A DNA stretch of 64,000 nucleotides from Escherichia phage vB_EcoM_3HA11: sequence record MN342150; one strand, given 5' to 3'. Shown in pieces: positions 2,748 through 64,000 of the stretch. The position numbers were made by a program, and so were the translations under genes. Within the stretch, counting starts at the first letter, position 1; each line of letters begins with the position of its first letter. The notes beneath the pieces were generated by a model. It ran no database searches and was not told where the DNA came from. It worked only from the letters and a program-made list of their open reading frames with translations.

Positions 2748-2757
2748 AAACCTTTAC

Positions 2758-2781: not shown

Positions 2782-2824
2782 TTAACCTACTTTGAAAAGT
2801 TTCACTATATCATGAGAGGCAGAT

Positions 2825-4018: not shown

Positions 4019-4130
4019 TTCTTTTACAATTTGTTTTGAAAGCATTTGCATTCGGTCTTATCGCATGCGGAGTGATCACAGCTATGCTGTTAATCATAGC
4101 CCTGATCATCCCCTTTAAGAGGAAACGCTG

Positions 4131-13592: not shown

Positions 13593-13628
13593 GGTCTGAA
13601 GCCCTTTAATTAGAATAGAGTGATGACA

Positions 13629-13636
13629 CTATTTAG
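13629..13636 (-). promoter_or_regulatory. late-promoter-like motif CTAAATAG
   Basis: About 40 nt upstream of structural gene start 13592; resembles the T4 late consensus TATAAATA. Confidence 0.25.
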
Positions 13637-13645
13637 GACTAGAAT

Positions 13646-14266
13646 ATGGCTATGTATTTGCAGGGGAAGTATGTTCCCGTAAATCCCAAGAAATATAAAG
13701 GCGACGTGAACAAAATAGTATTTCGTTCTTCGCTAGAACTTGTCGCCTTTAAATTTTGTGATATGAATCCTGCTATCGTCTATTGGTCTTCAGAAGAAAC
13801 TGTAATCCCTTACATATCTCCGGTTGATGGTCGCGCCCATCGTTATTTCATGGATTTGAAGGTTTGGACTCGTCGGCAGGATTCCGATGAATTACAAATT
13901 ACTCTTATTGAAATAAAACCCAAAGACCAGATTAAAGAACCTCGCAAAACTAAAACGATGAAGGAATCAACATTCAATAATTCAATGCGCACTTGGTTGG
14001 TAAATCAGGCAAAGTGGACAGCAACTAAAGAACATTGCGCGAAGGTAGGTTGGAAATTCATTATCTGGACAGAAGAACATTTGGTGCCAGGTGAAGACCC
14101 AGAAGTTAAAAAACAATTTGCTCTTCGTTCTAAGAAAAAGCGCGAAGTCGAAATGGAAGATCGACGCCGCGCTCAAAGGATTAATGCGTTGAAAGAGCAA
14201 ATGAAGAAGGAAACTGCTAATAAACAACCAACGCAATTGAAAGATGATGGTTTGTTATTACCCTGA
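13646..14266 (+). CDS. 4: head completion protein (T4 gp4-like)
   Basis: 206 aa; N-terminal LQGKYVPVNPKKYKGD...IVFRSSLELVAFKFCDMNPAIVYWSSEETVIPY matches remembered gp4/gp2-family signature (RSSWE...W..E.VVIPY). Confidence 0.5.
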   Translation: MAMYLQGKYVPVNPKKYKGDVNKIVFRSSLELVAFKFCDMNPAIVYWSSEETVIPYISPVDGRAHRYFMDLKVWTRRQDSDELQITLIEIKPKDQIKEPRKTKTMKESTFNNSMRTWLVNQAKWTATKEHCAKVGWKFIIWTEEHLVPGEDPEVKKQFALRSKKKREVEMEDRRRAQRINALKEQMKKETANKQPTQLKDDGLLLP

Positions 14267-35643: not shown

Positions 35644-36213
35644 TCAGCCTTTGAAGTTGATCGGTTTCTGAACCCCAGCGTCAAACGCGGCCTGGGTACG
35701 GGTATCGCTCACCACCTGGCAGGTCTTGTCAAGATCGATGCGCGGGTAGCCAAACACACCAGCAATCAACGAACCAGGGAACTGAGCCAGCTTGGTTTCG
35801 TACATCGCGCAGATGTCAAGCTTCTTGGTCTGACTGATACGGAACTCATCGCGGCCTGAGCTGATGACAACCTGGATCTCTTTGTACAGACTGGAATCAA
35901 ACTGAATGTTCTGTTCCTGGATCCACTGCATCACAGCCTTGGAACCATCAGCACCATAACGCCCTTCGAACGTACCTTTGATAACTTCCTTCAGGCCGTC
36001 TTTGTACATGTCAGGAATCTGCGCCGTCTCCTGAACTTTGAGCGTGTAGTTGCTCAGGTAGTTCTCAGAGTCTTTGTTGAACTTCTTGACCTGTTGCTCA
36101 GTGCGGTTGAAGTCGTTGAAATAACTGACGAAACTACCAACACCGATTACAACAAAAGCCAGAATCGCCAAACCGATGATCCAACCAATTGAAATACCTT
36201 TACGCTGCGACAT
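35644..36213 (-). CDS. LemA-family membrane protein
   Basis: 189 aa; N-terminal TM helix; C-terminal KLAQFPGSLIAGVFGYP matches the conserved LemA FP..IIAG.FGF segment. Confidence 0.55.
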   Translation of the reverse strand: MSQRKGISIGWIIGLAILAFVVIGVGSFVSYFNDFNRTEQQVKKFNKDSENYLSNYTLKVQETAQIPDMYKDGLKEVIKGTFEGRYGADGSKAVMQWIQEQNIQFDSSLYKEIQVVISSGRDEFRISQTKKLDICAMYETKLAQFPGSLIAGVFGYPRIDLDKTCQVVSDTRTQAAFDAGVQKPINFKG

Positions 36214-38259: not shown

Positions 38260-39495
38260 TCATCGTTTCAACAAAGACATGAGGTTTACACTGGTCGACT
38301 TCGGATTGTCCTCTATCTTCCGGACGGGCATTTTCAGATTAGTGTAAACCTCAGATGGTTCCCAACGCGTACCCTGCTGCAGGTGCCATATATGTAGAGG
38401 AACACCCGTCTCAAAGAACACAGACATCTTCCACTTCTGGACGCCAGGAACGTGCCCTGCAGGAGCTTTTTCGCATAACAGGGTATCTGGTAGCCAGAGG
38501 GAACGGGCTTCCCATAATGCCTTACAGGAGTACTCAGGCCAGATGCGTTCCATGTAGTCGATCTCATCCCAAGTACGCTCGGCATCCCACCCGATGTAAC
38601 GAGTGTTTTTCAGACGGAAGAATTTCTTAAGCCAACAAGCACCGGAAGTCTCAAAGTTCAAACGATTGATGAACGTGATGTGACCAAACTCGGCGACACA
38701 ATCTTTGAATGCCTGTTCAAGATCAGCCTCAAGGATGTCGCATTCTTCATCGGTGATAGGACAGCCGTTGATCTTTTTCTTTCCGTGCTTGGTCACCCAG
38801 TCGTCACGGTTTGACAAGAATGCCGCGCCGTTACGGTTGGACTCACTACCATCACGGTCACGCAACATGAACCCAGGGACGTCGATCTGATACATGTTGC
38901 CGAATACCATGTTCAGGGCTTCCAGGAAGTTCCAGGCGCTCAGGCGACCGAAGTATTTCCACCCCATAGCCGTGTCCCATAGCTTAACGAATTGATCACT
39001 TTGCAGTTTAGTCTCCAACAACGGACGGAAAGCATCCATCTGAGTACGACCAGCCAGCCAATCAATGTAGGACTGAACACACGGGATCATCTTCGATTTG
39101 CGATAGCGGCAATCAGTATCGAATCGCATACGCTCGAAGTTCAGGTTATACCAATCACAGAATCGCTTGAACTCTTGTGGTGACTGAGGCGGTACAGGAA
39201 ACTCACTATAAATCGTCCATGGGCCAACCCCATTATAACAACAGCCCCAAAGGAACGCCATCCAGATCTTGCGCTCGATCTTCTCAAGCTGCGTAATGCC
39301 TTCAGTGACTTCAATCGCATAATCCATCAGACGAACTTGTTGGTTGTGTTCTTCCGTATACGACAGCGCCTCCACCCATGCTTTGAGCAGATACATCCGA
39401 TTCTCTGGCTTACGATAATCGATTGACAAATCAATTGGGTACTTCCATTCAGCCGGAGGCGTATAACCTGTCGGCATTTTAGATAGATGCGTCAT
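38260..39495 (-). CDS. hypothetical protein (411 aa); candidate DNA-modification enzyme by context
   Basis: Large Trp/Cys-rich ORF with no motif I can name; upstream in the same operon as the P-loop kinase. Confidence 0.4.
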   Translation of the reverse strand: MTHLSKMPTGYTPPAEWKYPIDLSIDYRKPENRMYLLKAWVEALSYTEEHNQQVRLMDYAIEVTEGITQLEKIERKIWMAFLWGCCYNGVGPWTIYSEFPVPPQSPQEFKRFCDWYNLNFERMRFDTDCRYRKSKMIPCVQSYIDWLAGRTQMDAFRPLLETKLQSDQFVKLWDTAMGWKYFGRLSAWNFLEALNMVFGNMYQIDVPGFMLRDRDGSESNRNGAAFLSNRDDWVTKHGKKKINGCPITDEECDILEADLEQAFKDCVAEFGHITFINRLNFETSGACWLKKFFRLKNTRYIGWDAERTWDEIDYMERIWPEYSCKALWEARSLWLPDTLLCEKAPAGHVPGVQKWKMSVFFETGVPLHIWHLQQGTRWEPSEVYTNLKMPVRKIEDNPKSTSVNLMSLLKR

Positions 39496-40036: not shown

Positions 40037-40951
40037 CTAACCCTTGCTCAACAGGCCGAGAAGGGACACGGATGAGGTCTTTGGTTCTTCCTTGGCGACG
40101 GCCTTGTTTTTAGTTTTGGATGCCTTCTGCGGCTTCTCAGGCACTCTGTGAGCCAAAGGATCCTGACCGCCGACTTCACGCGTCATCGGATTGGTTTCGC
40201 AATAGCCGTAGAAGTCTTTCGACATCAGATTGTTAGCGCGGCAAACTGTGCCAAGCTGATGATAGATAGCATTACCCACCACCCACAACGGGGCGTCGAA
40301 CGGCAACATAGCCAATTCGCTATCATTCCCAGTCTTGAATTCTTGGGTGTTCGTAGCCGTTTGGTGGTACAAAACGTCTTGCCCACTGTAATCATCCACG
40401 GCAACATTCCAGCCAAGCGCCAGCATTTCAGCCTTGGACTTCTCGAACTCCTTGGAGTAAGATTCGTTGCGCGACCAGCCGGAATCCCCCGCTTCTTTAC
40501 CAGAGCGTCCACGGATGCGGGCATCGTACTGATAGCGGTCTGGATATGCAAAGTACAGCAGCGCCAAAGAATCAATCGGATAGTTATTGAACATCCATTC
40601 AGGACGCCACTTGTCCGACAGCATCAGAGGTTCGCCCTCACACACCAGGGTATATCCCTGAGCCAGCCAACCCTTGACGAGGTCGCGAGCAATATCCCCA
40701 GAGCCTGTGGCCGCATGAATGGCGTCCATAGAGGTCCAAGACGCCAGGCCGGATTTATTGGACACTGTGTATTGGCCGACGAAGATTAACTTCAGCTCTT
40801 CAAATTTCAGGCCGAAGGGGCGCGTCTTATCCCCAACAGTGTACGACAATTCAGTCGGCTTCAGCTTAGTGCGGAGCCACTCGATGAACTGTACGACACG
40901 AGTGCCTTTACCCGTGCCGCTGGTTCCTTTGATTACAATGATCTTTGCCAT
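40037..40951 (-). CDS. P-loop kinase (candidate nucleotide/DNA-base kinase)
   Basis: 304 aa; N-terminal Walker A IVIKGTSGTGKGT; no match to T4 dNMP kinase gp1 as remembered. Confidence 0.45.
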   Translation of the reverse strand: MAKIIVIKGTSGTGKGTRVVQFIEWLRTKLKPTELSYTVGDKTRPFGLKFEELKLIFVGQYTVSNKSGLASWTSMDAIHAATGSGDIARDLVKGWLAQGYTLVCEGEPLMLSDKWRPEWMFNNYPIDSLALLYFAYPDRYQYDARIRGRSGKEAGDSGWSRNESYSKEFEKSKAEMLALGWNVAVDDYSGQDVLYHQTATNTQEFKTGNDSELAMLPFDAPLWVVGNAIYHQLGTVCRANNLMSKDFYGYCETNPMTREVGGQDPLAHRVPEKPQKASKTKNKAVAKEEPKTSSVSLLGLLSKG

Positions 40952-51917: not shown

Positions 51918-52003
51918 TTGCTTCAACTGGATTCGAACCAGTGACCTCAGGCACCTTGTTCTCTCGAAACTTTCCTGCGCTCTACCACTCGAGCTATGAA
52001 GCA
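51918..52003 (-). tRNA. tRNA-like element, 86 nt, anticodon arm non-canonical
   Basis: Perfect acceptor stem (TGCTTCA/TGAAGCA), canonical D-arm and T-arm (ACTGG-TTCGAAT-CCAGT), but 35 nt between D- and T-arms with no standard 5-bp/7-nt anticodon stem-loop. Confidence 0.35.
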
Positions 52004-52006
52004 ATT

Positions 52007-52095
52007 TGGCGGAAGGTGAAGGATTCGAACCTTCGGGGGCTAAAAGCCCCACTCGATTAGCAGTCGAGTCCCTTAAACCTCTCGGGCAACCTTCC
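52007..52095 (-). tRNA. tRNA-Ser (anticodon GCU)
   Basis: Hand-folded cloverleaf: acceptor GGAAGGT/ACCTTCC, anticodon stem CTCGA/TCGAG with loop CTGCTAA, long variable arm, T-loop TTCGAAT, encoded CCA. Confidence 0.7.
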
Positions 52096-52099
52096 AATT

Positions 52100-52183
52100 T
52101 GGAGCGGGAGAACAGGATTCGAACCTGTCCAGTGATCGTCGCCGATGATCAGTCGGCTACTGGCCAACCCCTATGGCTCCCGC
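52100..52183 (-). tRNA. tRNA-like element (anticodon loop CTGATCA, possible GAU), non-canonical junctions
   Basis: Acceptor GCGGGAG/CTCCCGC and T-arm present, but one extra nucleotide between T-stem and acceptor, no clean D-stem, pyrimidine at position 37. Confidence 0.3.
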
Positions 52184-52544
52184 GAAATTAGGACGGGCTT
52201 CACACCCGATTGAGCATTTCATCTGCCCGTTTGAAGGGCGACCAGTGCCTTCTGGTCTGTACACAGCTGGCTGCAACGCTTACCGTGTTTGGTCTACCGC
52301 TACGTGCTGGGCCACGCTCGAGGACATCGGCCATCCTTCCTCAGCTAATCCACGCAGCGGCAGATTTGTATCAGAGTGTCCGGTGTAGCTTTCCGTGAGG
52401 TGCGCACTACTGTAGCCTCTACACTCTGAATTTGGTGGGCGTTACTATCGTCGTCTTCGGATTCCGTTCTGCTATTGGACAGAGGCTTGGAGCTTGTCGG
52501 TCGCATACTTCGTGCCTATTCACTTTCGTTCACACCCGTAATTC

Positions 52545-52619
52545 TGGCGGTGCCTCAAGGACTCGAACCTTGCTATCACGGATTAACAGTCCGCCGCTTC
52601 ACCATTTAGCTAAAGCACC
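52545..52619 (-). tRNA. tRNA-Asn (anticodon GUU)
   Basis: 75 nt; acceptor GGTGCTT/AGGCACC, anticodon stem GCGGA/TCCGT with loop CTGTTAA, T-arm CAAGG-TTCGAGT-CCTTG, encoded CCA. Confidence 0.65.
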
Positions 52620-52627
52620 TGAATATT

Positions 52628-52703
52628 TGGCATGCCCTCCAGGACTCGAACCTGGGTTGTACGGTTTTGGAGACCGACCTCATAGCCGCTAGATCAAGGG
52701 CAC
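52628..52703 (-). tRNA. tRNA-Trp (anticodon CCA), weak D-stem
   Basis: 76 nt; acceptor GTGCCCT/AGGGCAT, anticodon loop CTCCAAA, T-arm CCAGG-TTCGAGT-CCTGG, encoded CCA. Confidence 0.5.
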
Positions 52704-52717
52704 ACACCTTACAACGA

Positions 52718-52742
52718 ACTATACTGTATAAAGGTTATTGAA
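52718..52742 (-). promoter_or_regulatory. promoter-like motif TTCAATAA-N11-TATAGT (minus strand) upstream of tRNA-Trp
   Basis: The -10-like hexamer ends about 15 nt before the mature tRNA-Trp 5' end. Confidence 0.35.
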
Positions 52743-52771
52743 ACAAACCTTTATTTTATTCAACCATAATA

Positions 52772-52848
52772 TGGTGATCCTGGTTGGGTTTGAACCAACG
52801 ACCAATGAATTATGAGTTCACTGCTCTAACCGACTGAGCTACAGGACC
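52772..52848 (-). tRNA. tRNA-Met (anticodon CAU; initiator/elongator/Ile-lysidine not distinguished)
   Basis: 77 nt canonical cloverleaf: acceptor GGTCCTG/CAGGATC, D-arm GCTC-AGTCGGTTA-GAGC, anticodon stem GTGAA/TTCAT with loop CTCATAA, T-loop TTCAAAC, CCA. Confidence 0.75.
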
Positions 52849-53252
52849 TTTTGATTCTTCAAATTTCTCAACACGTGTGGGTTGGATTCTAACATCTTCT
52901 TCATGTTGTCCTCCTTACTTAACAATTGTAAATTCCACAGTGCGCAATTATATTTGTTCTCATCAATATGGTCTATTTCAAACCCTTCTGGAACTGGGCC
53001 ATTAAACGCCACCCAGACAAACCAGTGTAGATATTTCCTGAGATATACACCCAGATATTCCACTTTTATTTGCAAATAGCCAGTCCCGTTGTCCACTGCA
53101 GTCAAATACTTCTCTGGCAGTTTCTGTTCATATTCCCTAAACTGGTTCTTACGGAGTATAGTCAATTCAGGCTTCTTGACCTTTCCGTAGTTGCTGACAA
53201 ATACGCAGATTCCGAGTTTATCCAAACACAACTCTTTCCAAATCTCTTCCAT
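52839..53252 (-). CDS. HNH homing endonuclease
   Basis: 137 aa; HNH motif EIDHIDENKYNCALWNLQLL; adjacent to the tRNA array; 3' end overlaps tRNA-Met by about 10 nt. Confidence 0.6.
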   Translation of the reverse strand: MEEIWKELCLDKLGICVFVSNYGKVKKPELTILRKNQFREYEQKLPEKYLTAVDNGTGYLQIKVEYLGVYLRKYLHWFVWVAFNGPVPEGFEIDHIDENKYNCALWNLQLLSKEDNMKKMLESNPHVLRNLKNQKVL

Positions 53253-53259
53253 GCCAACT

Positions 53260-55600
53260 ATTCCCCGTTATTTGTGATGTGTCCAACCAAGGTCTCTCAA
53301 CCCTTTATCCCGTTTGTGCATGATCAGTTCATGCATGCCTGTTTGTGCGCCTCACGGCAACGCGCTTCTGTGGGTCTTTGGCTTGCACCGTAGCCTCACC
53401 ACAGGCGTTTATTTTTCCAGGGCTTTCCACTTGCAAGTCTTGACCATATAGGGATACGGGCTTGCAAGATCGGGTTGGACACAACTTTGATGGCTCTAGG
53501 ACTAAAGATCCCGCGTCACCCATAGACTTGGTTTATAAAATCTAGAGCCATCAAAGTTGCAACCAATGTCGCAACTCGCACTTCAGCGTCTTCGTCTCGC
53601 TTCAGCACTTGTCCTCTACGCTCGGACCAAACGAGGCTGGCCGACAGAAACATGACACCACTCATCACTAGAGCGAGGATGTGGTTGATAGCCACGATGT
53701 TACATCTCTGTCGCAGAGTGATCACACTTGTCAGGATGATCACTGTTTTGCGAACTTGAAAATACTGCGCCTGTCTCGGGTTTCCCCTTAGTTCGGCCTC
53801 TCATTGTTCGTCTAGTCAGGGAGCTACCCTTGATGACCAGCTTATTTTGAGATCTTCGCCAGCACCCACTAGTGTCTAGAATATGTAGGTGTCGAGGTCC
53901 GCAAGGCATTGCCCTATTTCATACAACGCTCTCTCAAGTACGCAAATCGAAGTTCTCTGGGCTTAACAGGTTCGACCCAACATGTTGTATATCGCCTAAC
54001 TTACTCATGGGACGGCCACTTCTGTGTACAGACCTTGAGGGTTAAAAGATATACCCAAAGAACTTCGATTTGCGTTGTGGGGCAAACCCCCACACGGCTA
54101 CTTCTTTGACAGGGATTGCTAGCCCTGGGGATTCCACTGTTTAAGGCTTTATCCCATAACGCCCGAGGCGCGTTTTAACTTATTGAAGCTTGCATAACTG
54201 CAAACTGATGCGCTGTGAGACACATCTTTGAGGGCACTCAGTGTACAACAGGCTCCGATATTTCATAGGGCATTACTGCCTCGGATTTAAGTTGCCTTTC
54301 TCCTGAAACTCCATACAGTCTCGCGTCTGACGCGGAATGCCCTCAAAGATATGGAGCCGTTTTAGGGAGTCGAACCCAAATGCTTGGCCAGCGCTGACCT
54401 TACATCCCATCTGACTTAGGCAACCCACCTCTGCTTACTCAGGAGCTTATCCCCTTTGGACAGTCAGATATAACGGCTTTGGGATTGGAGGAAGGACTCG
54501 AACCTTCTCATGTACGCTCCTGATTTCTCAGAAGTAGTCTGCTCCCATCGACCTATTAAGTACACGCTCCGCTCATTGTTCGGCGGGAGCTTATTAATCA
54601 CACCCTCCCGCCTATTGTTAGTGCGCCGAATTTTGTTATGAGGAATCGGAAGACCTCACTGGTGTATGGCTATTAAGCTACTGCCAGGAACGTGTTATCA
54701 TTAGCGATTATTTTTGTGGTCAGTTTCTAAAAACCCGCAAAGTCACGCACAACGAAAACGAAAACCTGTTTGAGTCCTAAACCTACCTGTCTTGGTCTCA
54801 CATCGCTATGAGTGGCCAGGACTCAAACAGCTTGCCGTTCAGTGAGTTAACTATACTTTGTAACCCGTTATTGATAAAACCTTTTATTTTTGTTGACGAG
54901 GGTGTGGAATCGAACCACACTTCTGAGCGCTGCCCCGTGTCACCAATGCACCACCTCACCATCGATTTGCCGGAACTTACGCATCCGGCCTCGTCCTGTC
55001 GGTGTTCTTCTGAATCCGGGAAGATCAGCAGGAACTATGAATCAAGTTAATTCAACCAACAGGAATCCTCGTGTTGCCCTTTGACGCAACATTATGAACC
55101 CTCTATGAAGACTCATAATGTTGTCGGCGTGATGGAGATTAGCGCCCCCGACCTCCCCTTATATGTTGGTGTCGACTTGCCAACAGGGTGCTCTCTGATT
55201 CTGAGCTAATCACGCTACAACAGGGAGTTTCGTTCTCCGACGGTCAAGTGCGTCCACTGACACCAGCGAGGTGGATATTATGCCTCTATTCACACAAGCC
55301 CCAGAGACTAGGGGTTCACTGTTTTCGGTTTCAAGCCTACTCACACTGTGCTGTTTCCCTCATGTTTGATACTTTACTGCAAGCCAGCCAATTTGAAAAA
55401 TCCTCTCCCCTTTGAATTACACTGCCCACAGCAGTGCGGACGAACCTTCATTCAAAACCGGATGCGCCGAAATGGGCGACTGTGTACCGGACTGATCAGG
55501 TCGACCCAGGAGAGAGCAGGTAATCCCGATCAGGAGGATGAGGAGTAACATCATGTAAAACATAGTGTTCCCTCCCTTCCATGCAACTAACTTTACCGCA
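53260..55600. other. ORF-poor structured region with tRNA-like fragments and long-range inverted repeats (candidate ncRNA, intron or pseudo-tRNA remnants)
   Basis: No credible ORF of 60 aa or more; T-arm-like motifs at about 54366, 54496 and 54910 with acceptor-like pairings at non-tRNA spacing; inverted repeats such as 53483-53500/53551-53568, 53943-53957/54060-54074 and 54225-54234/54341-54350. Confidence 0.4.
55414..55560 (-). CDS. small hydrophobic peptide (about 48 aa; below ORF-track cutoff)
   Basis: ATG preceded by strong GGAAGGGAGGGA RBS; MFYMMLLLILLIGITC signal-like N-terminus; coordinates hand-counted. Confidence 0.3.
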
Positions 55601-55613
55601 TTTATTTATTGAA
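55590..55613 (-). promoter_or_regulatory. promoter-like motif TTCAATAA-N10-TAAAGT (minus strand, weak -10)
   Basis: Upstream of the small peptide gene 55414..55560. Confidence 0.25.
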
Positions 55614-55620
55614 TAAAGCG

Positions 55621-56190
55621 TTATTTTATCAATTCTAACTTCACAACGCGGCGCAGAAGATAAACATATTCACCAGACGCTTCATGCGACATATAATGTG
55701 TAGAAGGGGTGGAATGGTTGTTCTGGGTTTCTTTTAACCCAACGCGTTCAGCCCAACCATTAATGGAGTTCCCGTAAAACCCGATAATCGCGCCGAAATA
55801 AATGCGCTGGCTCTCTGGTTCTAAAATATAGTTGACAGTGAAGCAGATGTCAGAACGAATAGATTCTAATTTTATACCAACCCGACCTTCAGAGAATTCG
55901 TTGCGAACATACAAATGACGAAAACGATCGCGTCGCGCTTGTGATGACTCTTCCAATTCTTGGCGAAGTGAGGATGTTGCATCGATATTAAATGAAAATG
56001 TCGGGTTTTGCAAATCGGTACGGGCTAACTCTAATGCTGATTCAACAACACGGCGGAAATTAATATTTTTGCCAGTCAGACGTTTCACTTCTTCTGTAAT
56101 TGTTCCGAAAGGAATTTTTGTAGCACGTTCCCCTTCGTATTTTGCTAACAAAGGGATGATGTGTTTCATTATTGCTGTATTAATGTGCAT
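55621..56190 (-). CDS. hypothetical protein (189 aa)
   Basis: Isolated minus-strand ORF between the ncRNA-like region and the plus-strand structural operon. Confidence 0.4.
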   Translation of the reverse strand: MHINTAIMKHIIPLLAKYEGERATKIPFGTITEEVKRLTGKNINFRRVVESALELARTDLQNPTFSFNIDATSSLRQELEESSQARRDRFRHLYVRNEFSEGRVGIKLESIRSDICFTVNYILEPESQRIYFGAIIGFYGNSINGWAERVGLKETQNNHSTPSTHYMSHEASGEYVYLLRRVVKLELIK

Positions 56191-56506
56191 TTCCTGAGCC
56201 TCGTCAAATTAATTAAATGTCCCCACTATTATATTGGGAATATGTTTATTGAATATAACCCCAAGAAAGGCCAATAAAATAATGACAGCGATTATTAATA
56301 GGTAAAAACTACTTTTCTACAACATCAAGAAACTGTATCTTAACGCGGTGCCCTTCGAGTTGTGAGTGTTAACGAACAACGAGAAGCAGCCTCCATGGCT
56401 GCGGAATGGGACTGCCTGTCAAGGCGGTGTTACGAGCGAGGGCGTCAGCCCCCTCGCGAGTATATTCGAATAAATTAACGCGCGAGAGCGTTTTGATTCC
56501 CTTTGG

Positions 56507-56513
56507 CTAAATA
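56507..56513 (+). promoter_or_regulatory. late-promoter-like motif CTAAATA
   Basis: About 40 nt upstream of the baseplate gene ATG at 56554. Confidence 0.25.
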
Positions 56514-56553
56514 TCTTCAACACCATATTCAAACTCAGGTGATGGAGATTATC

Positions 56554-58335
56554 ATGGCCACGCAAACAGTTCCTTCACTCGACGTCAGAGCCTTTGAGTA
56601 CATTATCAAACAGCGAATGAAAGCTGATCCCACCTTTAAAGATTATGACTTTGAAGGTTCCGGTCTTAGTGCTATTATTCGTTTGTTGGCATCTGATGCG
56701 AACGCCATAGCCTTTATGCAGAACATGCTTAATGGTGAAGGCCATTTAAAAACAGCAAATCAACGTTCTAATGTTGGTTTGTCTGCTGCTTTTCTTTCTT
56801 ATACCCCCGACAACTATCGGGCGGCATACATGTATGCCAACATCAAAGTAACGCCGTATGACGCCAGTACAGCTCCTAATGAGATCATTATGGACCGCCG
56901 TGTGATGTTCGTTGGGGCGAAGGATGGGAGTTCCTACAACTTTACTGTTGAAAAACCCGTGTCCGCCACGTTGACAACAGACGGTTATTACATGTTCAAC
57001 AACGTGAAACTGATTCAGGGTAACTGGTTGTACAAGACATATGATGTTGAAGGAAGCGCGATTTCGACTTATACGATACCTTCGGAAAATGTTGATATCA
57101 ATCATCTGGTCGTACAGGTACAGGAATCAGAGTCCTCTGATGTTTCAACGACATACCAGAGATACAACAGTCCGTTCGACCTGAATCAATATGCATATCT
57201 CTATTTTGTGGAATTAGGGATAGATGGCCTGTATGTGTTTGAGTTCGGAGATGGTTATCTGTCTCGCCGAGTAGAAGATGGCAACGTTATTTTCCTCCAG
57301 TATTTAGAAACTTCTGGCGCTGAAGGTAATGACATCACTAGTTTATCTTCCGCATCTTCGATAGGCGGGTTTAACCAGGTTGATATAGAATTGGTTTCCG
57401 AACGCAGTGCGGGTGGGGGAGATCCGGAATCTATTGAAGATACGAAGCGTCTGGCACCTTTGGCTTATCAGGCTGATGGCGCTGCCGTTACGGAAACCGA
57501 TTACGGTGTTTTAACTGAACGCTTGTTTTCTAACGTTGCCCGTGCTAAATCATATGGGGGTGATACGCTTTCCCCTCCGGATTCTGGTTACGTTTATATC
57601 GCTGTGATACCATCTGTTGGGGAGACTCTTTCAGACGCAGAGAAGGCTGATATCGTTGCCGCGTTGGACAAATACAACGTTGGGTCCATCACCCCCAAAG
57701 TGGTAGATTCTGAGATCACATATATCCAAGTCGCCACGACTATATTTTGGGATCCGACTTCAACGGTTTATGTTGAAGAACAAATGAAAGTGGTGGTGGG
57801 TAATAGTATCACCAAATGGGGTGAAAACAATCTCGGTGGTTTTGATCAATTGTTCGATAAAGAGATATTGCAGGAAGCAATTACTAAAATGGAACGATCC
57901 ATCAATTCGAATATTACAGCTGTTGGGTATAAACGCCATTTCAAACCAGAATACGGGATTTTGGACAGCTTTACGTTTAATTATGGAAGAAGTATCAAAT
58001 CTGGTTCTGTGAAAATAACAGGGTTCAAACCGCTTCCAGCAGAAGTTGATTTCACTTATTATATGCGCGATGACAATGGCGATTTGAACATGTATAAAGT
58101 GAACAACAACGACACCACTAAAGAATTTTTGGTTCAAAAGACTGGTGTTGTGGATTACGCCAACGGCGTCGTAGATCTTCAGCAGATTACGGTTTCAAAC
58201 TATAATACTGAAGGAGTAACGATCGTTGTGCTACCAGATGGCCTGAACCAGAACATACAGGCTACGCAAAACCAGGTATTCAAGATTGGTGATGTGGTTG
58301 TTACGCCAGAGGTGCGCTATGTCCAAAGATCTTAA
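56554..58335 (+). CDS. baseplate wedge protein (gp6 / Baseplate-J-like, putative)
   Basis: About 593 aa from an ATG with GGAG RBS (track ORF begins at 56503); first gene of a coupled baseplate/fibre operon; CTAAATA late-promoter-like motif upstream. Confidence 0.4.
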   Translation: MATQTVPSLDVRAFEYIIKQRMKADPTFKDYDFEGSGLSAIIRLLASDANAIAFMQNMLNGEGHLKTANQRSNVGLSAAFLSYTPDNYRAAYMYANIKVTPYDASTAPNEIIMDRRVMFVGAKDGSSYNFTVEKPVSATLTTDGYYMFNNVKLIQGNWLYKTYDVEGSAISTYTIPSENVDINHLVVQVQESESSDVSTTYQRYNSPFDLNQYAYLYFVELGIDGLYVFEFGDGYLSRRVEDGNVIFLQYLETSGAEGNDITSLSSASSIGGFNQVDIELVSERSAGGGDPESIEDTKRLAPLAYQADGAAVTETDYGVLTERLFSNVARAKSYGGDTLSPPDSGYVYIAVIPSVGETLSDAEKADIVAALDKYNVGSITPKVVDSEITYIQVATTIFWDPTSTVYVEEQMKVVVGNSITKWGENNLGGFDQLFDKEILQEAITKMERSINSNITAVGYKRHFKPEYGILDSFTFNYGRSIKSGSVKITGFKPLPAEVDFTYYMRDDNGDLNMYKVNNNDTTKEFLVQKTGVVDYANGVVDLQQITVSNYNTEGVTIVVLPDGLNQNIQATQNQVFKIGDVVVTPEVRYVQRS

Positions 58336-59175: not shown

Positions 59176-60366
59176 ATGGCCGATTTCCTGAGTCAATATA
59201 CAGGTCAGCAGATAGATCAGATATTGGGTTCTGTTGACGACAAAGTAAGTAAAAACGACGTCATTGATGATTTTGAAGTCAGTGACCCATTGTTTCCGCC
59301 TTCTGCTCGCCTGACTTATGAGTTGAAAAGGTCTGTGGATACGATTAATGATACCCTGACCAACAAAGTTATAAGAACGGATAGTGGCGAACAGACAATC
59401 AATGGCAAAAAGACTTTCAATGCTTTGTTGGTGACCAATGGGGGCATACAAGTCCCCGCTGGAAAATCCGTTTCAATCACAGATGAACCAACGAACTCGA
59501 CAGATGGTGTTAACCTGAGCATGTTGAGAAAGCATGGCGTCAGTGAAGACACTACCCCGCCTGGTTCTGGTTTGGCTGGGGAGTTGTTGACATCCGGATA
59601 TTACAAATTCAATTTGGATTTCACCAGATTGTCTGCGTATACCGGACCAACGTTGCCGACTTCAGTTCCTGTACAGACAGATTCTGGAGCGCGTTATTGG
59701 ACAATGACTGCATTTTTTGATGCGTTGTTTGCAGACAACCGATTTAATGGATATGTGACAACGACAGCGTATGACGCAGATATGCTGAGTCTAGAGTCTC
59801 AGATTAATAACATCAACACGTCGTTGAACGGGAAAGTCAACACCTCAACTTACAACACTAAGATGGCGTCGTTGGATTTGAGTATCTCCAATATCAACAC
59901 GTCTCTGGGTAATAAAGTCGAGGTCAGCACATATAATACGAAGATGACTTCCTTGGACGGCAGTATCAGTTCTCTCACGACTGGTAAGGTCGATGTATCA
60001 ACGTATAATGCCAAAATGACCACAATTGATAACAGTTTAGGGAACGCAGTTTATCGTACCAAAACGAATTTGTCGTCATACACGGTTTCGGCTTCGGGAA
60101 CGACGGCTCTTCCAGATTTTGATTTGGTAAACCTTTGTCAAATACTGGTAACTGCGCAATGGGGGACAGGTAACGTTGTTGACACATATCGAGTAACCAT
60201 AACTCGTGACGGAACGATCAAATCAGAGTTGTTGGTTCAGAAAAGTACGAGCGGTACAGTGACGTTCACAGGGGCTGTGGTGGGTGGCAAATTGAGAATT
60301 TCCGTTGTTAATGCAAATACAACAACCGCTTGTTCTGTCGATTATTCTATTGCAGCTTATTTCTAA
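59176..60366 (+). CDS. tail fibre protein with tandem repeats
   Basis: 396 aa; SGEQTINGKKTFNALLVTNGGIQVPAG fibre-like motif; three tandem repeats of about 20 aa (KVNTSTYNTKMASLD / KVEVSTYNTKMTSLD / KVDVSTYNAKMTTID). Confidence 0.5.
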   Translation: MADFLSQYTGQQIDQILGSVDDKVSKNDVIDDFEVSDPLFPPSARLTYELKRSVDTINDTLTNKVIRTDSGEQTINGKKTFNALLVTNGGIQVPAGKSVSITDEPTNSTDGVNLSMLRKHGVSEDTTPPGSGLAGELLTSGYYKFNLDFTRLSAYTGPTLPTSVPVQTDSGARYWTMTAFFDALFADNRFNGYVTTTAYDADMLSLESQINNINTSLNGKVNTSTYNTKMASLDLSISNINTSLGNKVEVSTYNTKMTSLDGSISSLTTGKVDVSTYNAKMTTIDNSLGNAVYRTKTNLSSYTVSASGTTALPDFDLVNLCQILVTAQWGTGNVVDTYRVTITRDGTIKSELLVQKSTSGTVTFTGAVVGGKLRISVVNANTTTACSVDYSIAAYF

Positions 60367-60368
60367 AA

Positions 60369-60375
60369 CTAAATA
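60369..60375 (+). promoter_or_regulatory. late-promoter-like motif CTAAATA followed by a 9-bp 5'-UTR hairpin
   Basis: Upstream of the tailspike ATG at 60413; inverted repeat AATACCCCT/AGGGGTATT between motif and start. Confidence 0.25.
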
Positions 60376-60412
60376 CCCCTAGATGACATGAATACATTTA
60401 GGGGTATTACAA

Positions 60413-63400
60413 ATGGCCAACAAACCAACACAGCCTCTTTTCCCTTTGGGTTTAGAAACTTCTGAGTCTTCGAACATAAAAGGCTTCAACAACTCCGGCA
60501 CTATTGAGCATTCCCCTGGTGCCGTAATGACATTCCCTGAAGATACTGAAGTTGCAGGTCTTCCATCTTCTGTACGTTACAATCCTGATAGCGATGAATT
60601 TGAAGGTTATTACGAAAACGGTGGTTGGTTGTCTTTGGGGGGCGGTGGAATACGCTGGGAAACGCTCCCTCACGCTCCCTCTAGCAATTTGTTAGAAGGT
60701 CGCGGCTATCTCATTAATAACACCACAGGGGCATCTACAGTGGTTCTCCCTCCCCCTACACGTGTTGGGGATTCCGTTACTATTTGTGATGCTTATGGAA
60801 AATTCGCCACTTACCCATTGACTGTATCTCCAGCGGGAAATAACCTTTACGGCTCCACCGAAGATATGACGATATCCACCGATAACGTGTCGGCGACTTT
60901 CACTTGGTCTGGGCCTGAACAAGGTTGGGTTGTCACATCCGGCGTCGGCCTTGGCCAAGGCCGTGTCTACAGTCGTGAGATTTTTACACAAATTTTGGCG
61001 TCTGAAACAAGCGCTGTCACTCTCAATACTCCACCAACAATCGTGGACGTGTATGCTGACGGAAAACGTCTTGCGGAATCCAAATATTCACTAGATGGGA
61101 ATGTGATCACTTTCAGTCCTTCTTTGCCAGCCAGCACAGAACTTCAGGTGATTGAATATACTCCTATTCAATTGGGTAATGGCGGTGGTTCTAGTTCTTC
61201 TACGATTACCTGGGTCTATAATGGGGGTTCTGCGATTGGTGGTGAAACCGAAATCACGTTAGACATCGTTGTCGATGATGTTCCGGCCATTGATATAAAC
61301 GGAAGTCGCCAGTATAAAAATCTGGGGTTCACATTTGATCCATTAACCAGTAAAATCACTCTTGCGCAAGAACTGGATGCAGAGGATGAAGTTGTTGTAA
61401 TTATCAATGGAACGCCAAACATCTATAATCAAATTGATTATACTTTGCGGGAAGTGGCTCGTGTAACCAATGTTAAAGATACAGAGGTTGTTTATTTTAG
61501 TGTTGGTGCGGTGTTAAGCGGGTATAAAGTTATCTATGATAAAGTAACACAGAGATCATATTTTATTCCAGAGCTACCGACTGGAACCACGGCAGTCAGC
61601 CTTAGTTCTTCGGCTGTACTTGTGCATTCTGCTGGTAGTGTTGATCTGGGCGCATTAGCTGTATCTCGTGAAGAATATGTTACCTTGTCTGGGACATTTG
61701 ATTCTGGTGCTGTTATCAATGTTAAAAATGAATTACTCACCCATACGAACGGTAAGTATCGTTGGGATGGTGCACTTCCTAAAACTGTCGATGCTGGCTC
61801 AACACCTGAGACAACTGGCGGCGTTGATTTAGGTGCATGGGTTAGTGTTGGTGATGCTTCTCTACGTAATGATTTAAAATCTGATGATGTACAGTTAGGT
61901 GATAACTTAATTACAGTAAAGCAACCATTCTCTTCAGCATCTACCAGAACCCAACACAATAAGAACTCAGAATTCGTCAGTCTGATGGATTTTGTCGACC
62001 CTAATACCGTCACTACGGATTACACGATTGCTATTTTTAATGCTATATCTGATGGTGTGACTGGTCTGATAATTCCTCCAGGAAAATATGTAGTCAGTAA
62101 TCTTGAGATTGGTATCCCATTACAATTTCTTCCAGGTAGTTCGTTGTCTGTCACAGCAGGGTCAACCTTAACAATCAGGGGACAAATTTTTGCTCCTGAT
62201 GTTAGAATTTTTTATGGTGATGGTACTGTTAATATTCAGGGGCCAGCCAGAAAAAATAAATCAGGTGCTTACTGGTTTGGGCTACATGGAAATGATGTAC
62301 GTGTAACTGCAACATGTGCAATTGGTAATCCGGTAATATCTGCCCCAGGTCATTTCTTCCAGGAAGGGGATGGTGTAGCTATAGAACATGTTGGGTCTGC
62401 TGCTGCATTACCCATCCCTACAAATGTCACTGTAGCGGCAACAGGACTTAATAGACAAGGGCCAACAGGAACCACAACATACAGCTATCGCGTTGCTACC
62501 GTTGATGAGAATGGTGCTGTAAGTGTAGCTAGTGCACCAATTACCATTACTAATGGTAATGACACTCTTGGTAAATTGACACCAAGCATACGTGGTTTAG
62601 CTTTTAACGTTATTCGTTGGGATAGTTCTATAGGAAGTGCTGCTGTATGGCGCAGTAAAGCTGGTGGTGCATATGAACTATTGGGTGTATTTGGTATGGG
62701 TCAATCTGACTCTATAGCTAATGGCCTAATGGATTCTGGATTGCCTGCTATCACTATACCGTGGATTCCACCACAACCTACGGAAGCGGCATTACCTCCA
62801 CGTATTATTACTAAAGTTGTTTCTGTAACTACTAATACGGTTACTGTGAAGAATGCACCACAAGTAACTGGTGCTGCATTGATACGTAATGATGCGTCAG
62901 TAGACTTGGTTAGTTACATGAATAATTGTGATGAGGCATTTATCCCCTCTGGTGTGCATAACGTAACAAGCTGCACTGTTCCTACCACAGTTAAACGAAT
63001 TTTTGGTAATGGATACCAGTCTCTTATATATGGTTGGGGTAACTTAAATAGCGTACTTAATTGTACTGGGATGGGGGCTGGATTCTCGATTGAAGGTATT
63101 CGTGTGCATAGTACAGCTTGGCATAACCAGATTGGCATTCAATTGAACCAGCTTACTAAGGCAAAGGTCAAAGATTGTTATACGTCTGGTAACTTGCCCA
63201 TATTCCTCAATGGTTGTACCCGCACAGTTGTATCCGATGTGCTTGTTGAAGAGTGGATTGATTCCGCAATTTTCGACTACATGGGTAACTGGAATACCAT
63301 CAAAGATATTGACGTGGAACAAGGCTGTGCAGCTATCCCACAAAACGCTGCTGCTATTCACTTGTATGGTACAAGTACTGGCATTGTTAGGGATATTCGC

Positions 63401-63994
63401 ACATCTGGTTTCCATGTGTATGGGGTTAAGATAGAAAGTGGTAATCAGAACTGGGCATATCAGAACTACATCAGTAACTCTTGGGTAGAATCTCTTCACA
63501 TTACTGGTAGTTCTTCTGGCAACAGGCTTACCAATAACTCAGTGTTCGGTGGCACTCATTGCATGGATTATGCTATTAGTATTAGCAACGATGACCGACC
63601 AAACTGCGTTATGCACGCGAATGAGGTTGCCTACAACTTCATTTATGAATGCGGTACTAGTGCAATAGCTGTTTGTGAATTTGGAGGTGCTAACCCAGAT
63701 ATAAATTACACGGTAGTTAAGGGTAATACCGTATTTGGTGCTAATAAGAATGGTATTGCAAATACACCAGAAATTTATATTGAAGGTTCCCACGTACATA
63801 ATACGTACGTAAGTGACCATCATTCGTTTTCTTCTGGTGCTGTGAATTATACGGTACAAGAAGTTAACGACCTCTACGGATTACCCAACAACACACAAGT
63901 TGGTACTCTTTTTGGCGATACACCAACAACAGGCCTCGTTATGTTGACTGGTACTGGCAGTGCTAAACTAGCAGGCGGAGGAACTGGCTTATAA
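60413..63994 (+). CDS. tailspike / large tail fibre protein (receptor-binding, possible beta-helix depolymerase)
   Basis: 1193 aa; Gly/Ser/Thr/Asn/Val-rich beta composition; CTAAATA motif and 5'-UTR hairpin upstream; GC content falls in the distal two-thirds. Confidence 0.5.
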   Translation: MANKPTQPLFPLGLETSESSNIKGFNNSGTIEHSPGAVMTFPEDTEVAGLPSSVRYNPDSDEFEGYYENGGWLSLGGGGIRWETLPHAPSSNLLEGRGYLINNTTGASTVVLPPPTRVGDSVTICDAYGKFATYPLTVSPAGNNLYGSTEDMTISTDNVSATFTWSGPEQGWVVTSGVGLGQGRVYSREIFTQILASETSAVTLNTPPTIVDVYADGKRLAESKYSLDGNVITFSPSLPASTELQVIEYTPIQLGNGGGSSSSTITWVYNGGSAIGGETEITLDIVVDDVPAIDINGSRQYKNLGFTFDPLTSKITLAQELDAEDEVVVIINGTPNIYNQIDYTLREVARVTNVKDTEVVYFSVGAVLSGYKVIYDKVTQRSYFIPELPTGTTAVSLSSSAVLVHSAGSVDLGALAVSREEYVTLSGTFDSGAVINVKNELLTHTNGKYRWDGALPKTVDAGSTPETTGGVDLGAWVSVGDASLRNDLKSDDVQLGDNLITVKQPFSSASTRTQHNKNSEFVSLMDFVDPNTVTTDYTIAIFNAISDGVTGLIIPPGKYVVSNLEIGIPLQFLPGSSLSVTAGSTLTIRGQIFAPDVRIFYGDGTVNIQGPARKNKSGAYWFGLHGNDVRVTATCAIGNPVISAPGHFFQEGDGVAIEHVGSAAALPIPTNVTVAATGLNRQGPTGTTTYSYRVATVDENGAVSVASAPITITNGNDTLGKLTPSIRGLAFNVIRWDSSIGSAAVWRSKAGGAYELLGVFGMGQSDSIANGLMDSGLPAITIPWIPPQPTEAALPPRIITKVVSVTTNTVTVKNAPQVTGAALIRNDASVDLVSYMNNCDEAFIPSGVHNVTSCTVPTTVKRIFGNGYQSLIYGWGNLNSVLNCTGMGAGFSIEGIRVHSTAWHNQIGIQLNQLTKAKVKDCYTSGNLPIFLNGCTRTVVSDVLVEEWIDSAIFDYMGNWNTIKDIDVEQGCAAIPQNAAAIHLYGTSTGIVRDIRTSGFHVYGVKIESGNQNWAYQNYISNSWVESLHITGSSSGNRLTNNSVFGGTHCMDYAISISNDDRPNCVMHANEVAYNFIYECGTSAIAVCEFGGANPDINYTVVKGNTVFGANKNGIANTPEIYIEGSHVHNTYVSDHHSFSSGAVNYTVQEVNDLYGLPNNTQVGTLFGDTPTTGLVMLTGTGSAKLAGGGTGL

Positions 63995-64000
63995 CAAAAA

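Follow-up and report, generated by a model that had tools for sequence, protein, structure and literature searches.

The open reading frame at positions 60413–63994 of the window (the whole 64,000-nucleotide stretch of DNA that was analyzed) is the TSP4 (tailspike protein 4) gene of a Kuttervirus (Ackermannviridae). Its product is very probably a three-layer hub of the Kuttervirus branched complex, with an exchangeable receptor-binding (RBD) cassette as its outer layer. The gene also changes in base composition along its length. The exchange junction was found at 61857–61875 and the composition change at approximately 61331, approximately 500 bases upstream, so the composition break does not mark the fusion point, contrary to what the initial annotation had proposed. 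All features described lie on the plus strand.

Gene identity and genomic context

The gene is complete, with an ATG start and 1193 codons plus the stop. In megablast comparisons it was 100% identical to its counterpart in Salmonella phage FSL SP-063 and 99.9% identical to that of phage Guerrero (GUERRERO_173). Nucleotide identity of 98.8–100% extended from end to end in the TSP4 genes of the Kutterviruses FSL SP-063, FSL SP-029, Guerrero, vB-SalM-SJ2, STML-13-1, UTK0005, AKM_ssTn, and Sajous1. There was no material difference from the TSP4 of the FSL SP-063/FSL SP-029/Guerrero group, whose phages were sequenced earlier, and the TSP4 gene itself had already been described. A conserved N-terminus and a variable C-terminus have been noted previously for the SP-029 and SP-063 tailspikes (PMC3728262).

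Only 10 of the 188 related phage records matched the full length of the gene. The other 178 matched only gene nt 1 to approximately 1450, with 94–99% identity over that part. The suggestion that a conserved N-terminal anchor is joined to an exchanged receptor-binding or enzymatic module was borne out. PHROG families covered either aa 1–490 or the entire protein. In the annotation of Guerrero, the gene order runs from the baseplate wedge genes through TSP4, TSP3, TSP2, and TSP1 to VrlC; in the window, a baseplate wedge PHROG match was located at 56503–58335, upstream of TSP4. The gene is the first of four tsp genes and lies directly 3′ of the baseplate wedge genes, the position characteristic of a Kuttervirus TSP4.

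Anchor, XD domains, and tailspike head

Residues 1–338 matched the crystal structures of CBA120 TSP4-N (7REJ and 7RFO; E = 2e-217, phmmer against PDB), and 7RFV matched aa 1–250. From the phmmer match to CBA120 TSP4-N and the domain limits given in PMC8825819, the baseplate anchor domain (AD) comprises aa 1–75 (60413–60637), and the T4 gp10-like domains XD1-XD2-XD3, matched by 7REJ, 7RFO, and 7RFV, comprise aa 80–335 (60650–61417). A tetra-glycine linker (GGGG, aa 76–79, 60638–60649) was located between them in the translation. Homology of AD and XD1-XD2-XD3 to CBA120 TSP4-N335 is a hallmark of Kuttervirus TSP4, as is a Tail_spike_N head located after the XD domains, and both were found here. 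The structure and function of TSP4-N have been described, with interactions measured by ultracentrifugation in CBA120, and T4 gp10 shares the XD fold and the role of docking platform for trimeric partners (PMC8825819). T4 gp10 is without a tailspike head or RBD, and the likeness to it here rests on the CBA120 TSP4-N match. Near identity to CBA120 TSP4-N suggests that the protein would form a trimeric hub binding the baseplate, TSP2, and TSP1.

The D1-D2 tailspike head (aa ∼344–483, 61442–61861) was delimited by Pfam and PDB matches and was conserved among Kuttervirus TSP4s (93–100% identical among Kutterviruses). It includes Pfam Tail_spike_N (PF18668; aa 416–481, 61658–61855; E = 3.9e-23), and PDB entries 5W6H, 4OJ5, and 5W6F matched over aa 339–495, with aa 344–495 corresponding to the heads of CBA120 TSP4, TSP1, and TSP3. 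The motif GTTAVSL, located in the translation at aa 391–397 (61583–61603), has been put forward as a place where TSP1, TSP3, and TSP4 recombine with one another (PMC8432352).

Compared with CBA120 TSP4 (ORF213; PDB 7REJ/7RFO for the N-part and 5W6H for the C-part), AD-XD1-XD2-XD3 was near-identical in alignment, the D1-D2 head matched over aa 344–490, the genomic position was alike, and the presumed hub role in the branched complex is common to both (PMC8825819). Past aa ∼490, no similarity to CBA120 TSP4 was detectable, and nucleotide identity to PhaxI, a close CBA120 relative, fell to approximately 0.2–0.4 after gene nt 1450. The protein is 1193 aa long versus 1036 aa in CBA120 TSP4, whose module recognizes E. 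coli O78 (PMC8432352).

Exchange junction and cassette limits

Five Kuttervirus genomes were collinear with the window from 57813 up to 61857–61875, with blastn homology to their TSP4 subtypes stopping at 61857, 61857, 61863, 61864, and 61875. The exchange junction defined by these end points and by the drop in identity (61838–61876) lies between WVSVGDA, the conserved end of D2, and SLRNDL, the start of the variable module. Binned identity fell from 0.8–1.0 to approximately 0.3 over gene nt 1440–1500, and nucleotide identity to a G7C-like spike stepped from 72% (head) to 83.5% (RBD) exactly at 61861/61862. Homology with other Kutterviruses restarted at the first base past the stop codon, as seen in the 99.9%-identical Guerrero, from which this 3′ boundary was read because only 6 nt of the window follow the stop codon. 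Conserved sequence therefore flanks the sharp loss of homology on both sides, as expected of an RBD cassette. Because of the sharp 5′ loss and the restart after the stop codon, 61862–63991 (aa 484–1193; 710 aa), which just 10 phage records contain in its entirety, was taken as the replaceable cassette.

Phage vB_Sen_ST2 was 100% identical over gene nt 1–1320, showed 0.98 identity in nt 1321–1380, and was unrelated beyond, the pattern of a swap that took place recently. Published work has described modular TSPs with swapped RBDs in Kuttervirus (PMC8432352, PMC11721090) and, for a different type of RBD, exchange of Kuttervirus TSP4 with the spikes of G7C-like phages (PMC8432352); modularity, swapping, and exchange with G7C-like phages are thus already established for the genus.

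Architecture of the receptor-binding module

The RBD was modeled as a monomer from only 13 sequences. Model secondary structure gave neck helices and a small N-terminal cap subdomain at aa 484–620 (61862–62272), a predicted beta-sandwich region preceding the helix at aa ∼630–826 (62300–62890; model strands at module residues 147–343), and a right-handed parallel beta-helix at aa ∼829–1133 (62897–63811), the presumed catalytic and binding body. The neck and cap segment showed weak similarity to the opening part of numerous tailspike beta-helices, that of Sf6 among them (2VBE/4URR, matching aa 490–591, E ∼1e-6), and many partial matches landed on module residues 1–90. The beta-sandwich region may serve in carbohydrate binding or as a spacer. 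By itself (module residues ∼139–390) it was matched in many representative proteins, and it had the lowest GC3 of the gene (0.19–0.24).

The fold class was clear in the model: a right-handed parallel beta-helix body, the feature that characterizes tailspike depolymerases. The RBD may act as a hydrolase, a lyase, or an esterase, or it may only bind. Pfam Beta_helix scored below its gathering threshold (22.1 vs. 25.9 bits), and Foldseek TM-scores of the model to PDB entries were low (0.15–0.37). The RBD was only 9–14% identical to AlgE4 epimerase, GH87 glucanase, phi29 gp12, and K1 lyase, and likewise to the Det7, HK620, Sf6, and 9NA spikes, with no enzyme class standing out. Unlike these enzymes and tailspikes, it has in the model an extra beta-sandwich region of approximately 200 residues before the helix.

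Invariant motifs of the beta-helix were WIDSAIFD (948–955), AIPQNAAAI (974–982), KIE.GNQN (1006–1013), NSW.E..H (1022–1029), MDYAISISNDD (1051–1061), and CGTSAIAVCEFGG (1080–1092). The invariant acidic residues of the RBD were D950, D955, E1008, E1026, D1052, D1060, and E1089, with no close structural template for their assignment. Judged from the modeled fold, which is typical of polysaccharide depolymerases and agrees with the enzymatic module that the initial annotation had envisaged, the RBD is probably an O-antigen or capsule depolymerase. Its subtype has no entry in the host-prediction table of PMC8432352, and the receptor is not assigned there. More tentatively, and jointly with the gene-pool reading of low GC3 given below, the RBD may represent an uncharacterized depolymerase family with a Salmonella or E. 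coli glycan receptor.

Occurrence of the RBD on other anchors

A search of 1.84 billion representative proteins gave 292 matches to the RBD (E ≤ 0.001), with the core attached at many different offsets. Beyond the TSP4 anchor, at least five further N-terminal scaffolds, from other phages and prophages, carried the same C-terminal module, in keeping with the view of an exchanged module. RBDs of approximately 50% identity were found on epsilon15-like (922 aa), short (690–702 aa), Tail_spike_N (830 aa), and other (869 aa) N-termini. Occurrence on unrelated anchors and in unrelated phage lineages is a further property of an RBD cassette.

The G7C-like N4-type podovirus spike P0002, encoded on a metagenomic contig (L007) with an N4-like backbone of approximately 70 kb, carried an RBD 88–89% identical in amino acids and 83.5% in nucleotides, from SLRNDL to the C-terminus. 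P0002 is 868 aa long, with a short TSP1-like N-terminus, and its D1-D2 head was homologous to the TSP4 head at 68–71% amino acid identity. Upstream of P0002 on the same contig, a 375-aa protein carried XD-like domains (PHROG 12242). The G7C-like gp63.1-type spike docks on a separate gp66-like XD adaptor, whereas TSP4 is fused to AD-XD1-3. By these sequence comparisons, the RBD has evidently moved between the Kuttervirus myovirus lineage and the G7C-like N4-type podoviruses.

The epsilon15-like E. coli prophage tailspikes P0003, P0005, and P0007 (922 aa) shared 50–54% amino acid identity with the RBD from the cap to the C-terminus and kept its invariant motifs and architecture. Their N-terminal anchor was unrelated, and from its N-terminal sequence we take it to be of the epsilon15 gp20 type. 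The spike gene belongs to a temperate podovirus prophage and adjoins an acyltransferase gene. At approximately 50% RBD identity, the sugar specificity of these spikes need not match that of TSP4. The epsilon15-like spike genes also showed a fall in GC3 from anchor to RBD (0.416 to 0.325).

Base composition of the gene

GC content was 0.452 in 60413–61600 and 0.419 in 61900–63994, with GC3 of 0.376 and 0.300, respectively. The 5′ part was thus GC-richer than the distal part, as the initial annotation had it, but it was typical of the genome and not GC-rich in itself (window mean 0.446; SD 0.024 in 1200-bp windows and 0.04 in 300-bp windows). The distal part was indeed AT-richer, at approximately the 5th percentile of 2100-bp windows, but it was not uniform, with GC3 of 0.23 in codons 484–827 versus 0.36 in codons 828–1193 (P = 0.0035). 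In the single change-point test, significance was confined to third codon positions: the GC3 change-point was at codon 306 (position 61331), after which GC3 fell from 0.402 to 0.290 (LLR 6.44, permutation P = 0.0115); when the analysis was restricted to codons 1–827, it was matched by 0 of 2000 permutations. Its support covered codons ∼285–405 (61268–61628), comprising the XD3 end, the XD3-D1 linker, and part of D1, which is approximately 300–600 nt upstream of the break that had been placed at 61600–61900. The all-base GC change-point was at 60980 (P = 0.035), and GC1 and GC2 change-points were not significant (permutation P = 0.60 and 0.44).

With GC3 corrected for amino acid composition (expectation from the window's own codon usage), residuals were −0.067 for aa 1–338, within the range of other genes, −0.20 for aa 339–483, and −0.17 for aa 484–1193. 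The difference between aa 1–338 and the rest was 0.106 (P < 0.0002). Residues 339–483 and 484–1193 did not differ (P = 0.42). GC3 was genome-typical in XD1-XD3 (0.39), and the D1-D2 head was already AT3-rich (0.24–0.27). The homology junction (codon ∼483) was disfavored as the change-point by approximately 4.6 log-likelihood units, and the compositional discontinuity that a cassette might show at its junction was not found there. The shift is real but modest, lies mainly at synonymous sites, and is not a clean two-state pattern. Because the head is as AT3-rich as the cassette, composition separates the gp10-like adaptor (aa 1–335) from the tailspike proper; low GC3 spans head and RBD and spares the adaptor, and so indicates where the adaptor and the tailspike meet, not where the present cassette is joined.

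Among the window's 74 ORFs, none had a lower GC3 than the TSP4 gene (0.318 vs. a mean of 0.457, SD 0.067). The gradient from the N-terminal part to the head and RBD recurred in five other TSP4 subtypes carrying unrelated C-modules. In Guerrero, TSP4 codons 1–300 and TSP2 codons 1–200, which bear the XD domains, were near genome-typical, and the remainder of the four TSP genes was mostly low in GC3, with a few local rebounds. Across genera, the association of low GC3 with the tailspike unit was only a tendency: Agtrevirus EspM4VN TSP4 was nearly genome-typical (GC3 0.56 vs. 0.61 in the core), with no internal break.

Explanations of the compositional shift

That the shift is no real feature but ordinary fluctuation within a gene is the least probable explanation and can be given almost no weight: the total-GC amplitude is small (0.45 vs. 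0.42) against the 300-bp SD and the all-base P value is only 0.035, but the GC3 change-point was significant in the whole gene and more so in codons 1–827, and the pattern recurred in TSP2 and in five further TSP4 genes. Scarcely more probable is an artifact of amino acid composition, in which a Gly/Ala/Pro-rich anchor would produce the shift with no synonymous difference. GC2 was 0.52 in codons 1–279 versus 0.45 afterward, and the visible GC bump at 60500–61100 coincided with GC2 of 0.49–0.55; however, neither GC1 nor GC2 yielded a significant change-point, and that of GC3 survived the amino acid correction, which refutes the artifact as the main cause. It is also improbable, if less so, that the break is the footprint of the recombination junction, with a GC-richer resident anchor joined to a recently imported AT-richer RBD. 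Such a footprint would agree with the lower GC3 of the C-module (0.297 vs. 0.350 in aa 1–483; corrected difference 0.061, P = 0.023) and with the AT3-richness of the RBD family in three contexts, Kuttervirus, G7C-like podovirus, and E. coli prophage, the last with an RBD GC3 of 0.325 versus 0.42–0.55 in its neighbors. The position of the best change-point, the equal GC3 of the conserved head and the RBD, and the same gradient in five TSP4 subtypes with unrelated RBDs largely refute it.

Translational selection could also account for low tailspike GC3 without reference to ancestry, through slow or rare codons that aid cotranslational folding and trimerization or through low expression, and we consider it a possible, although rather unlikely, cause. 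All four Guerrero TSP genes were depressed (d = −0.11 to −0.16) and the neighboring VrlC and baseplate genes were not; the highest-GC3 genes of the window look like abundant structural genes; and the GC3 rebound at codons ∼900–1100 had counterparts at the corresponding sites of the P0002 and P0005 genes, suggesting a constraint tied to position. The effect nevertheless varied greatly between cassettes and genera (EspM4VN TSP4 as above, TSPd 0.55, and TSPc 0.43 against the core; Menlow TSPs 0.32–0.46), and this variability is easier to reconcile with a varied history than with a folding requirement common to all. Slightly more plausible, although still tentative, is the reading that several phage families may draw on a common pool of tailspike genes (D1-D2 head plus RBD), of which low GC3 would be an inherited mark. 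Members of such a pool may pass between Ackermannviridae, G7C-like podoviruses, and prophages, with only loose amelioration to each resident genome. If the gene-pool reading is true, the XD3/D1 composition step would record an ancient fusion of a gp10-like adaptor with a complete mobile tailspike.

Proposed organization of TSP4

In the proposed model, TSP4 would be the hub of a four-spike branched receptor-binding complex. Layer 1 (aa 1–335), the anchor with three gp10-like XD domains, would tether the complex to the baseplate and provide docking sites for TSP2 and TSP1, as judged from CBA120 TSP4-N homology. Layer 2 (aa ∼344–483) is the genus-conserved D1-D2 tailspike head, with paralogues in TSP1 and TSP3. 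Layer 3 (aa 484–1193), the receptor-binding module, in which the model shows a neck, a cap, a beta-sandwich, and a right-handed beta-helix, most likely recognizes and degrades a particular polysaccharide, either an O-antigen or a capsule. With the cassette bounded on the 5′ side by the conserved D2 end (61857–61875) and on the 3′ side by the stop codon and the conserved intergenic region, homologous recombination in its flanks could replace layer 3 and change host range.

The range of O-antigen or capsule types open to attack by a Kuttervirus is set by its TSP4 module, and Kutterviruses are used for biocontrol of Salmonella and E. coli O157 and for their detection. The precise limits of the cassette (WVSVGDA/SLRNDL at 61857–61875 and the stop codon) are of practical use for chimeric-spike engineering. 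A GC or GC3 step is an unreliable locator of recombination junctions in the TSP4 family because the conserved head domains have the composition of the swapped module. Epsilon15-like prophage spikes, along with other scaffolds, carry more distant versions of the RBD; among 5426 complete E. coli genomes, a single one contained the prophage relative.

Gene identity and domain organization

The ORF at 60413-63994 (+ strand; 1193 aa on translation) was 100% identical to a gene of Salmonella phage FSL SP-063, 99.9% identical to that of phage Guerrero (Ackermannviridae, Kuttervirus), and 98.8-99.4% identical to those of SP-029, SJ2, UTK0005, AKM_ssTn, STML-13-1, and Sajous1 (megablast, phage genomes). 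Gene order in Guerrero runs from the baseplate wedge genes to the gene for tailspike protein 4 (TSP4) and on to three more tailspike genes and vrlC, and PHROG matches in the window gave the same context upstream of the gene. Together, the identity to Kuttervirus genes, the gene order, and the PHROG context assign the ORF, by homology, to TSP4, the predicted hub of a four-spike branched receptor-binding complex as in CBA120.

Residues 1-338 were nearly identical to the CBA120 TSP4-N crystal structures 7REJ and 7RFO (E = 2e-217). CBA120 TSP4-N comprises a baseplate anchor domain, a tetra-glycine linker (aa 76-79 in the present protein), and three T4 gp10-like domains, XD1-XD3, which are the docking sites of TSP2 and TSP1 (PMC8825819). 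Residues ~344-490 resembled the D1-D2 heads of CBA120 TSP4, TSP1, and TSP3 (PDB sequence search); the motif GTTAVSL lies in this head at aa 391-397. Past residue ~490, the sole similarity to a PDB sequence was a weak one between aa 490-591 and the start of the Sf6 spike. Pfam searches of full TSP4 and of its C-terminal module (aa 484-1193) returned only Tail_spike_N (aa 416-481) and, below threshold, Beta_helix; matches to DUF7323 and TIG were at noise level and were dismissed.

Within the conserved anchor, a patch in the XD1 region (60833-60892; gene nt 421-480) was locally divergent, with 72-75% identity to S117, PhaxI, and PhiSH19 and 100% identity to vB_Sen_ST2 and Mutine, adjacent bins being 90-100% identical. 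This pattern suggests that small-scale mosaicism also occurs inside TSP4-N.

Three observations concern the database records. In STML-13-1 (JX181828.1 / NC_042061.1, 100985-105135), the full-length match to the 3582-nt query was a join of two pieces that extended over 4151 nt of the record; the second piece is probably a paralogous D2 segment of the adjoining tsp gene. A TSP4 N-terminus of Kuttervirus type was present, at 97.6% aa identity, in the record labelled Pseudomonas phage Pa-sanjiao (MN871475.1), and one Enterococcus-labelled record appeared among the organism counts of both searches for TSP4 relatives. The host labels of these last two records look doubtful.

The exchange junction

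Most related phage records (178 of 188) aligned solely to gene nt 1 to ~1442-1452, at 94-99% identity. When five other TSP4 subtypes were compared in 60-nt bins, identity was 0.8-1.0 up to nt 1440 and ~0.3 in the next bin. The blastn collinearity with five phages began at 57813 and ended at 61857, 61857, 61863, 61864, and 61875, so that comparison with related tailspikes located the junction at 61857-61875; in the protein, the break falls between WVSVGDA, the end of D2, and SLRNDL. Homology to other phages restarted at the first base 3′ of the TSP4 stop codon, as seen in Guerrero. The sharp loss of homology on the 5′ side and its resumption after the stop codon therefore define 61862-63991 as a 2.1-kb exchange cassette with conserved DNA on both flanks. 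Within 60000-64000, predicted promoters and terminators were no more numerous than in shuffled sequence, and nothing suggested that the junction holds an internal start.

The TSP4 gene of vB_Sen_ST2 matched the window at 100% identity in gene nt 1-1320 and at 0.98 in nt 1321-1380; beyond this it was unrelated, which points to a recent swap. Its replacement module shared 87.8% nt identity with Guerrero TSP3 (3813-4294 of the ST2 sequence vs. 12919-13400 of the Guerrero sequence). Judged from these alignments, ST2 TSP4 represents a natural transfer of a receptor-binding domain (RBD) between TSP positions, in agreement with the published sharing of modules between TSP3 and TSP4 (PMC8432352).

Composition along the TSP4 gene

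The initial annotation had placed a compositional break at ~61600-61900 and had read it as the fusion point. A shift in third-codon-position GC (GC3) does exist: a single change-point, from 0.402 to 0.290, was found after codon 306 (61331; permutation P = 0.0115), with a likelihood support region of approximately codons 285-405 (61268-61628). No change-point in GC1 or GC2 within the gene was significant. Composition did not locate the junction, given that a change-point at codon 483 was ~4.6 log-likelihood units worse than the best position. Nor was the 5′ segment GC-rich; its GC content (0.452) was ordinary for the window (mean 0.446). The distal segment was indeed AT-richer (GC content 0.419, approximately the 5th percentile of equal-sized windows) and differed in codon usage, but it was not homogeneous: GC3 was 0.23 in codons 484-827 vs. 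0.36 in codons 828-1193. The same rebound was seen at the equivalent position of two homologous genes in other genomes and is therefore intrinsic to the module rather than a second junction.

The TSP4 gene had the lowest GC3 among 74 ORFs of the window. When GC3 was corrected for amino-acid composition, with expectations taken from the codon usage of 38 other window genes, aa 1-338 fell 0.067 under expectation, within the variation among those genes (SD 0.066), whereas the D1-D2 head fell 0.20 and aa 484-1193 fell 0.17 under expectation. Head and C-terminal module did not differ (P = 0.42), and each differed from aa 1-338 (P ≤ 0.003).

In Guerrero, corrected GC3 was low in each of the four tsp genes (-0.11 to -0.16) and normal in the flanking vrlC. 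The XD-bearing stretches (TSP4 codons 1-300 and TSP2 codons 1-200) were near genome-typical, and the rest of these genes was mostly low, save for a few local rebounds. The GC3 gradient from the N-terminus to the head and RBD was common to five TSP4 subtypes with unrelated modules. Because the XD stretches are typical and the gradient is shared by unrelated modules, the composition step sets the tailspike proper, head and RBD together, apart from the gp10-like adaptor. It is not a divide between resident and imported DNA at the cassette boundary as it now stands.

The RBD family was AT3-rich in three of three genomic contexts examined. The idea that low GC3 is fixed and universal among tailspike units was weakened by Agtrevirus EspM4VN, whose TSP4 was near genome-typical (GC3 0.56 vs. 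0.61 in the core) and had no break. In Taipeivirus Menlow, the TSPs had a GC3 of 0.32-0.46 vs. 0.51 in the core. A uniform translational requirement for low GC3 fits such wide variation of the deficit across genera less well than does mixed ancestry with partial amelioration, which we consider the likelier of the two explanations.

Predicted structure and carriers of the RBD module

In an AlphaFold2 model of the module, built from a 13-sequence alignment (pLDDT 82.4, pTM 0.84), neck helices led into a small cap, which was followed by a beta-sandwich region of ~200 residues and then by a long beta-helix. Invariant motifs on successive helix turns carried the acidic residues D950, D955, E1008, E1026, D1052, D1060, and E1089. 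We infer that the module is probably a trimeric depolymerase specific for O-antigen or capsule. A Foldseek search of the PDB gave generic beta-helix matches only (TM-scores 0.15-0.37), supporting no specific enzyme class, and the main text of PMC8432352 gives no host for the TSP4 subtype with this RBD.

Only ten records of the phage collection contained the full module. In a wider search of a 5.8-billion-protein set, P0002, an 868-aa spike whose N-terminus is short and TSP1-like, carried the module at 89% aa identity, and 922-aa proteins, in which the N-terminus is long and of a different kind, carried it at 45-54% identity. The module was also present in 690-702-aa proteins that have almost no N-terminus, behind another Tail_spike_N head in 830-aa proteins, and behind yet another N-terminus in an 869-aa protein. 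When 1.84 billion representatives were scanned exhaustively with HMMER, 292 relatives were recovered, among which the module core (residues ~138-710) was joined at many different offsets.

The metagenomic contig with P0002 encoded a terminase, a virion protein, and a 375-aa XD-bearing adaptor, all three as in G7C-like N4-type podoviruses (ECBP1, phi G17, PW8). Compared with the P0002 gene, D1-D2 was 72% identical in nucleotides and the module 83.5%, with the step exactly at 61861/61862; thus, the same junction was used between phage families.

One 922-aa relative, in an E. coli prophage, adjoined an Acyl_transf_3 gene and lysis genes. The Acyl_transf_3 gene (12805-13854 of the prophage sequence, - strand) had a GC content of 0.327 and a GC3 of 0.26 and was convergent to the tailspike gene with the related RBD; its product plausibly acetylates the O-antigen in seroconversion. 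Among 5426 complete E. coli genomes, only that of strain MARGA_3 (NZ_CM170101.1) contained the DNA of this relative's RBD. Inference of the receptor from this relative was dropped, since a single genome carried the RBD DNA and ~50% aa identity would be too low for specificity to be transferred.

For Kuttervirus TSPs, published work already describes N-termini that are conserved, receptor-binding modules that vary, and the swapping of these modules, as well as exchange with G7C-like phages and the conserved head motif GTTAVSL (PMC8432352, PMC11721090, PMC8825819), and the SP-029 and SP-063 tailspikes were already described as conserved N-terminally and variable C-terminally (PMC3728262). The initial biological reading, a conserved N-terminus with an exchanged receptor-binding module, is therefore correct but not new, and the compositional observation made with it holds only in part. 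The small additions made here are where exactly the cassette begins and ends, the likeness in composition of the conserved head to the cassette, a second example of exchange that links Kuttervirus TSP4 with the spike of a G7C-like podovirus, and the predicted architecture of this RBD type.

Other features of the window

The highest GC3 values of the window (0.57-0.63; z up to +5.5 vs. expectation) belonged to 35644-36213, 38260-39495, and 40037-40951 (- strand), possibly structural genes with high expression. No ORF >80 aa was present in the ~1.9-kb stretch (53750-55620) that separates the tRNA/HNH region from the gene at 55621-56190, and an Rfam scan of this stretch found nothing at E ≤ 0.01; the Guerrero equivalent (2340-4219) likewise lacks annotation.

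A tRNA cluster occupies 51918-52848 (- strand), in which ARAGORN predicted five genes (Ser-gct, Ile-gat, Asn, Trp, and Met). Rfam instead reported a tRNA at 51918-52003 and lacked the one at 52100-52183, and in the Guerrero annotation the first two are labelled Leu and Ser; these sources therefore disagree on both the number and the identities of the tRNAs. The counterpart of the Guerrero HNH homing endonuclease (52839-53252, - strand) abuts the tRNA-Met gene (52772-52848), with an overlap of ~10 nt.
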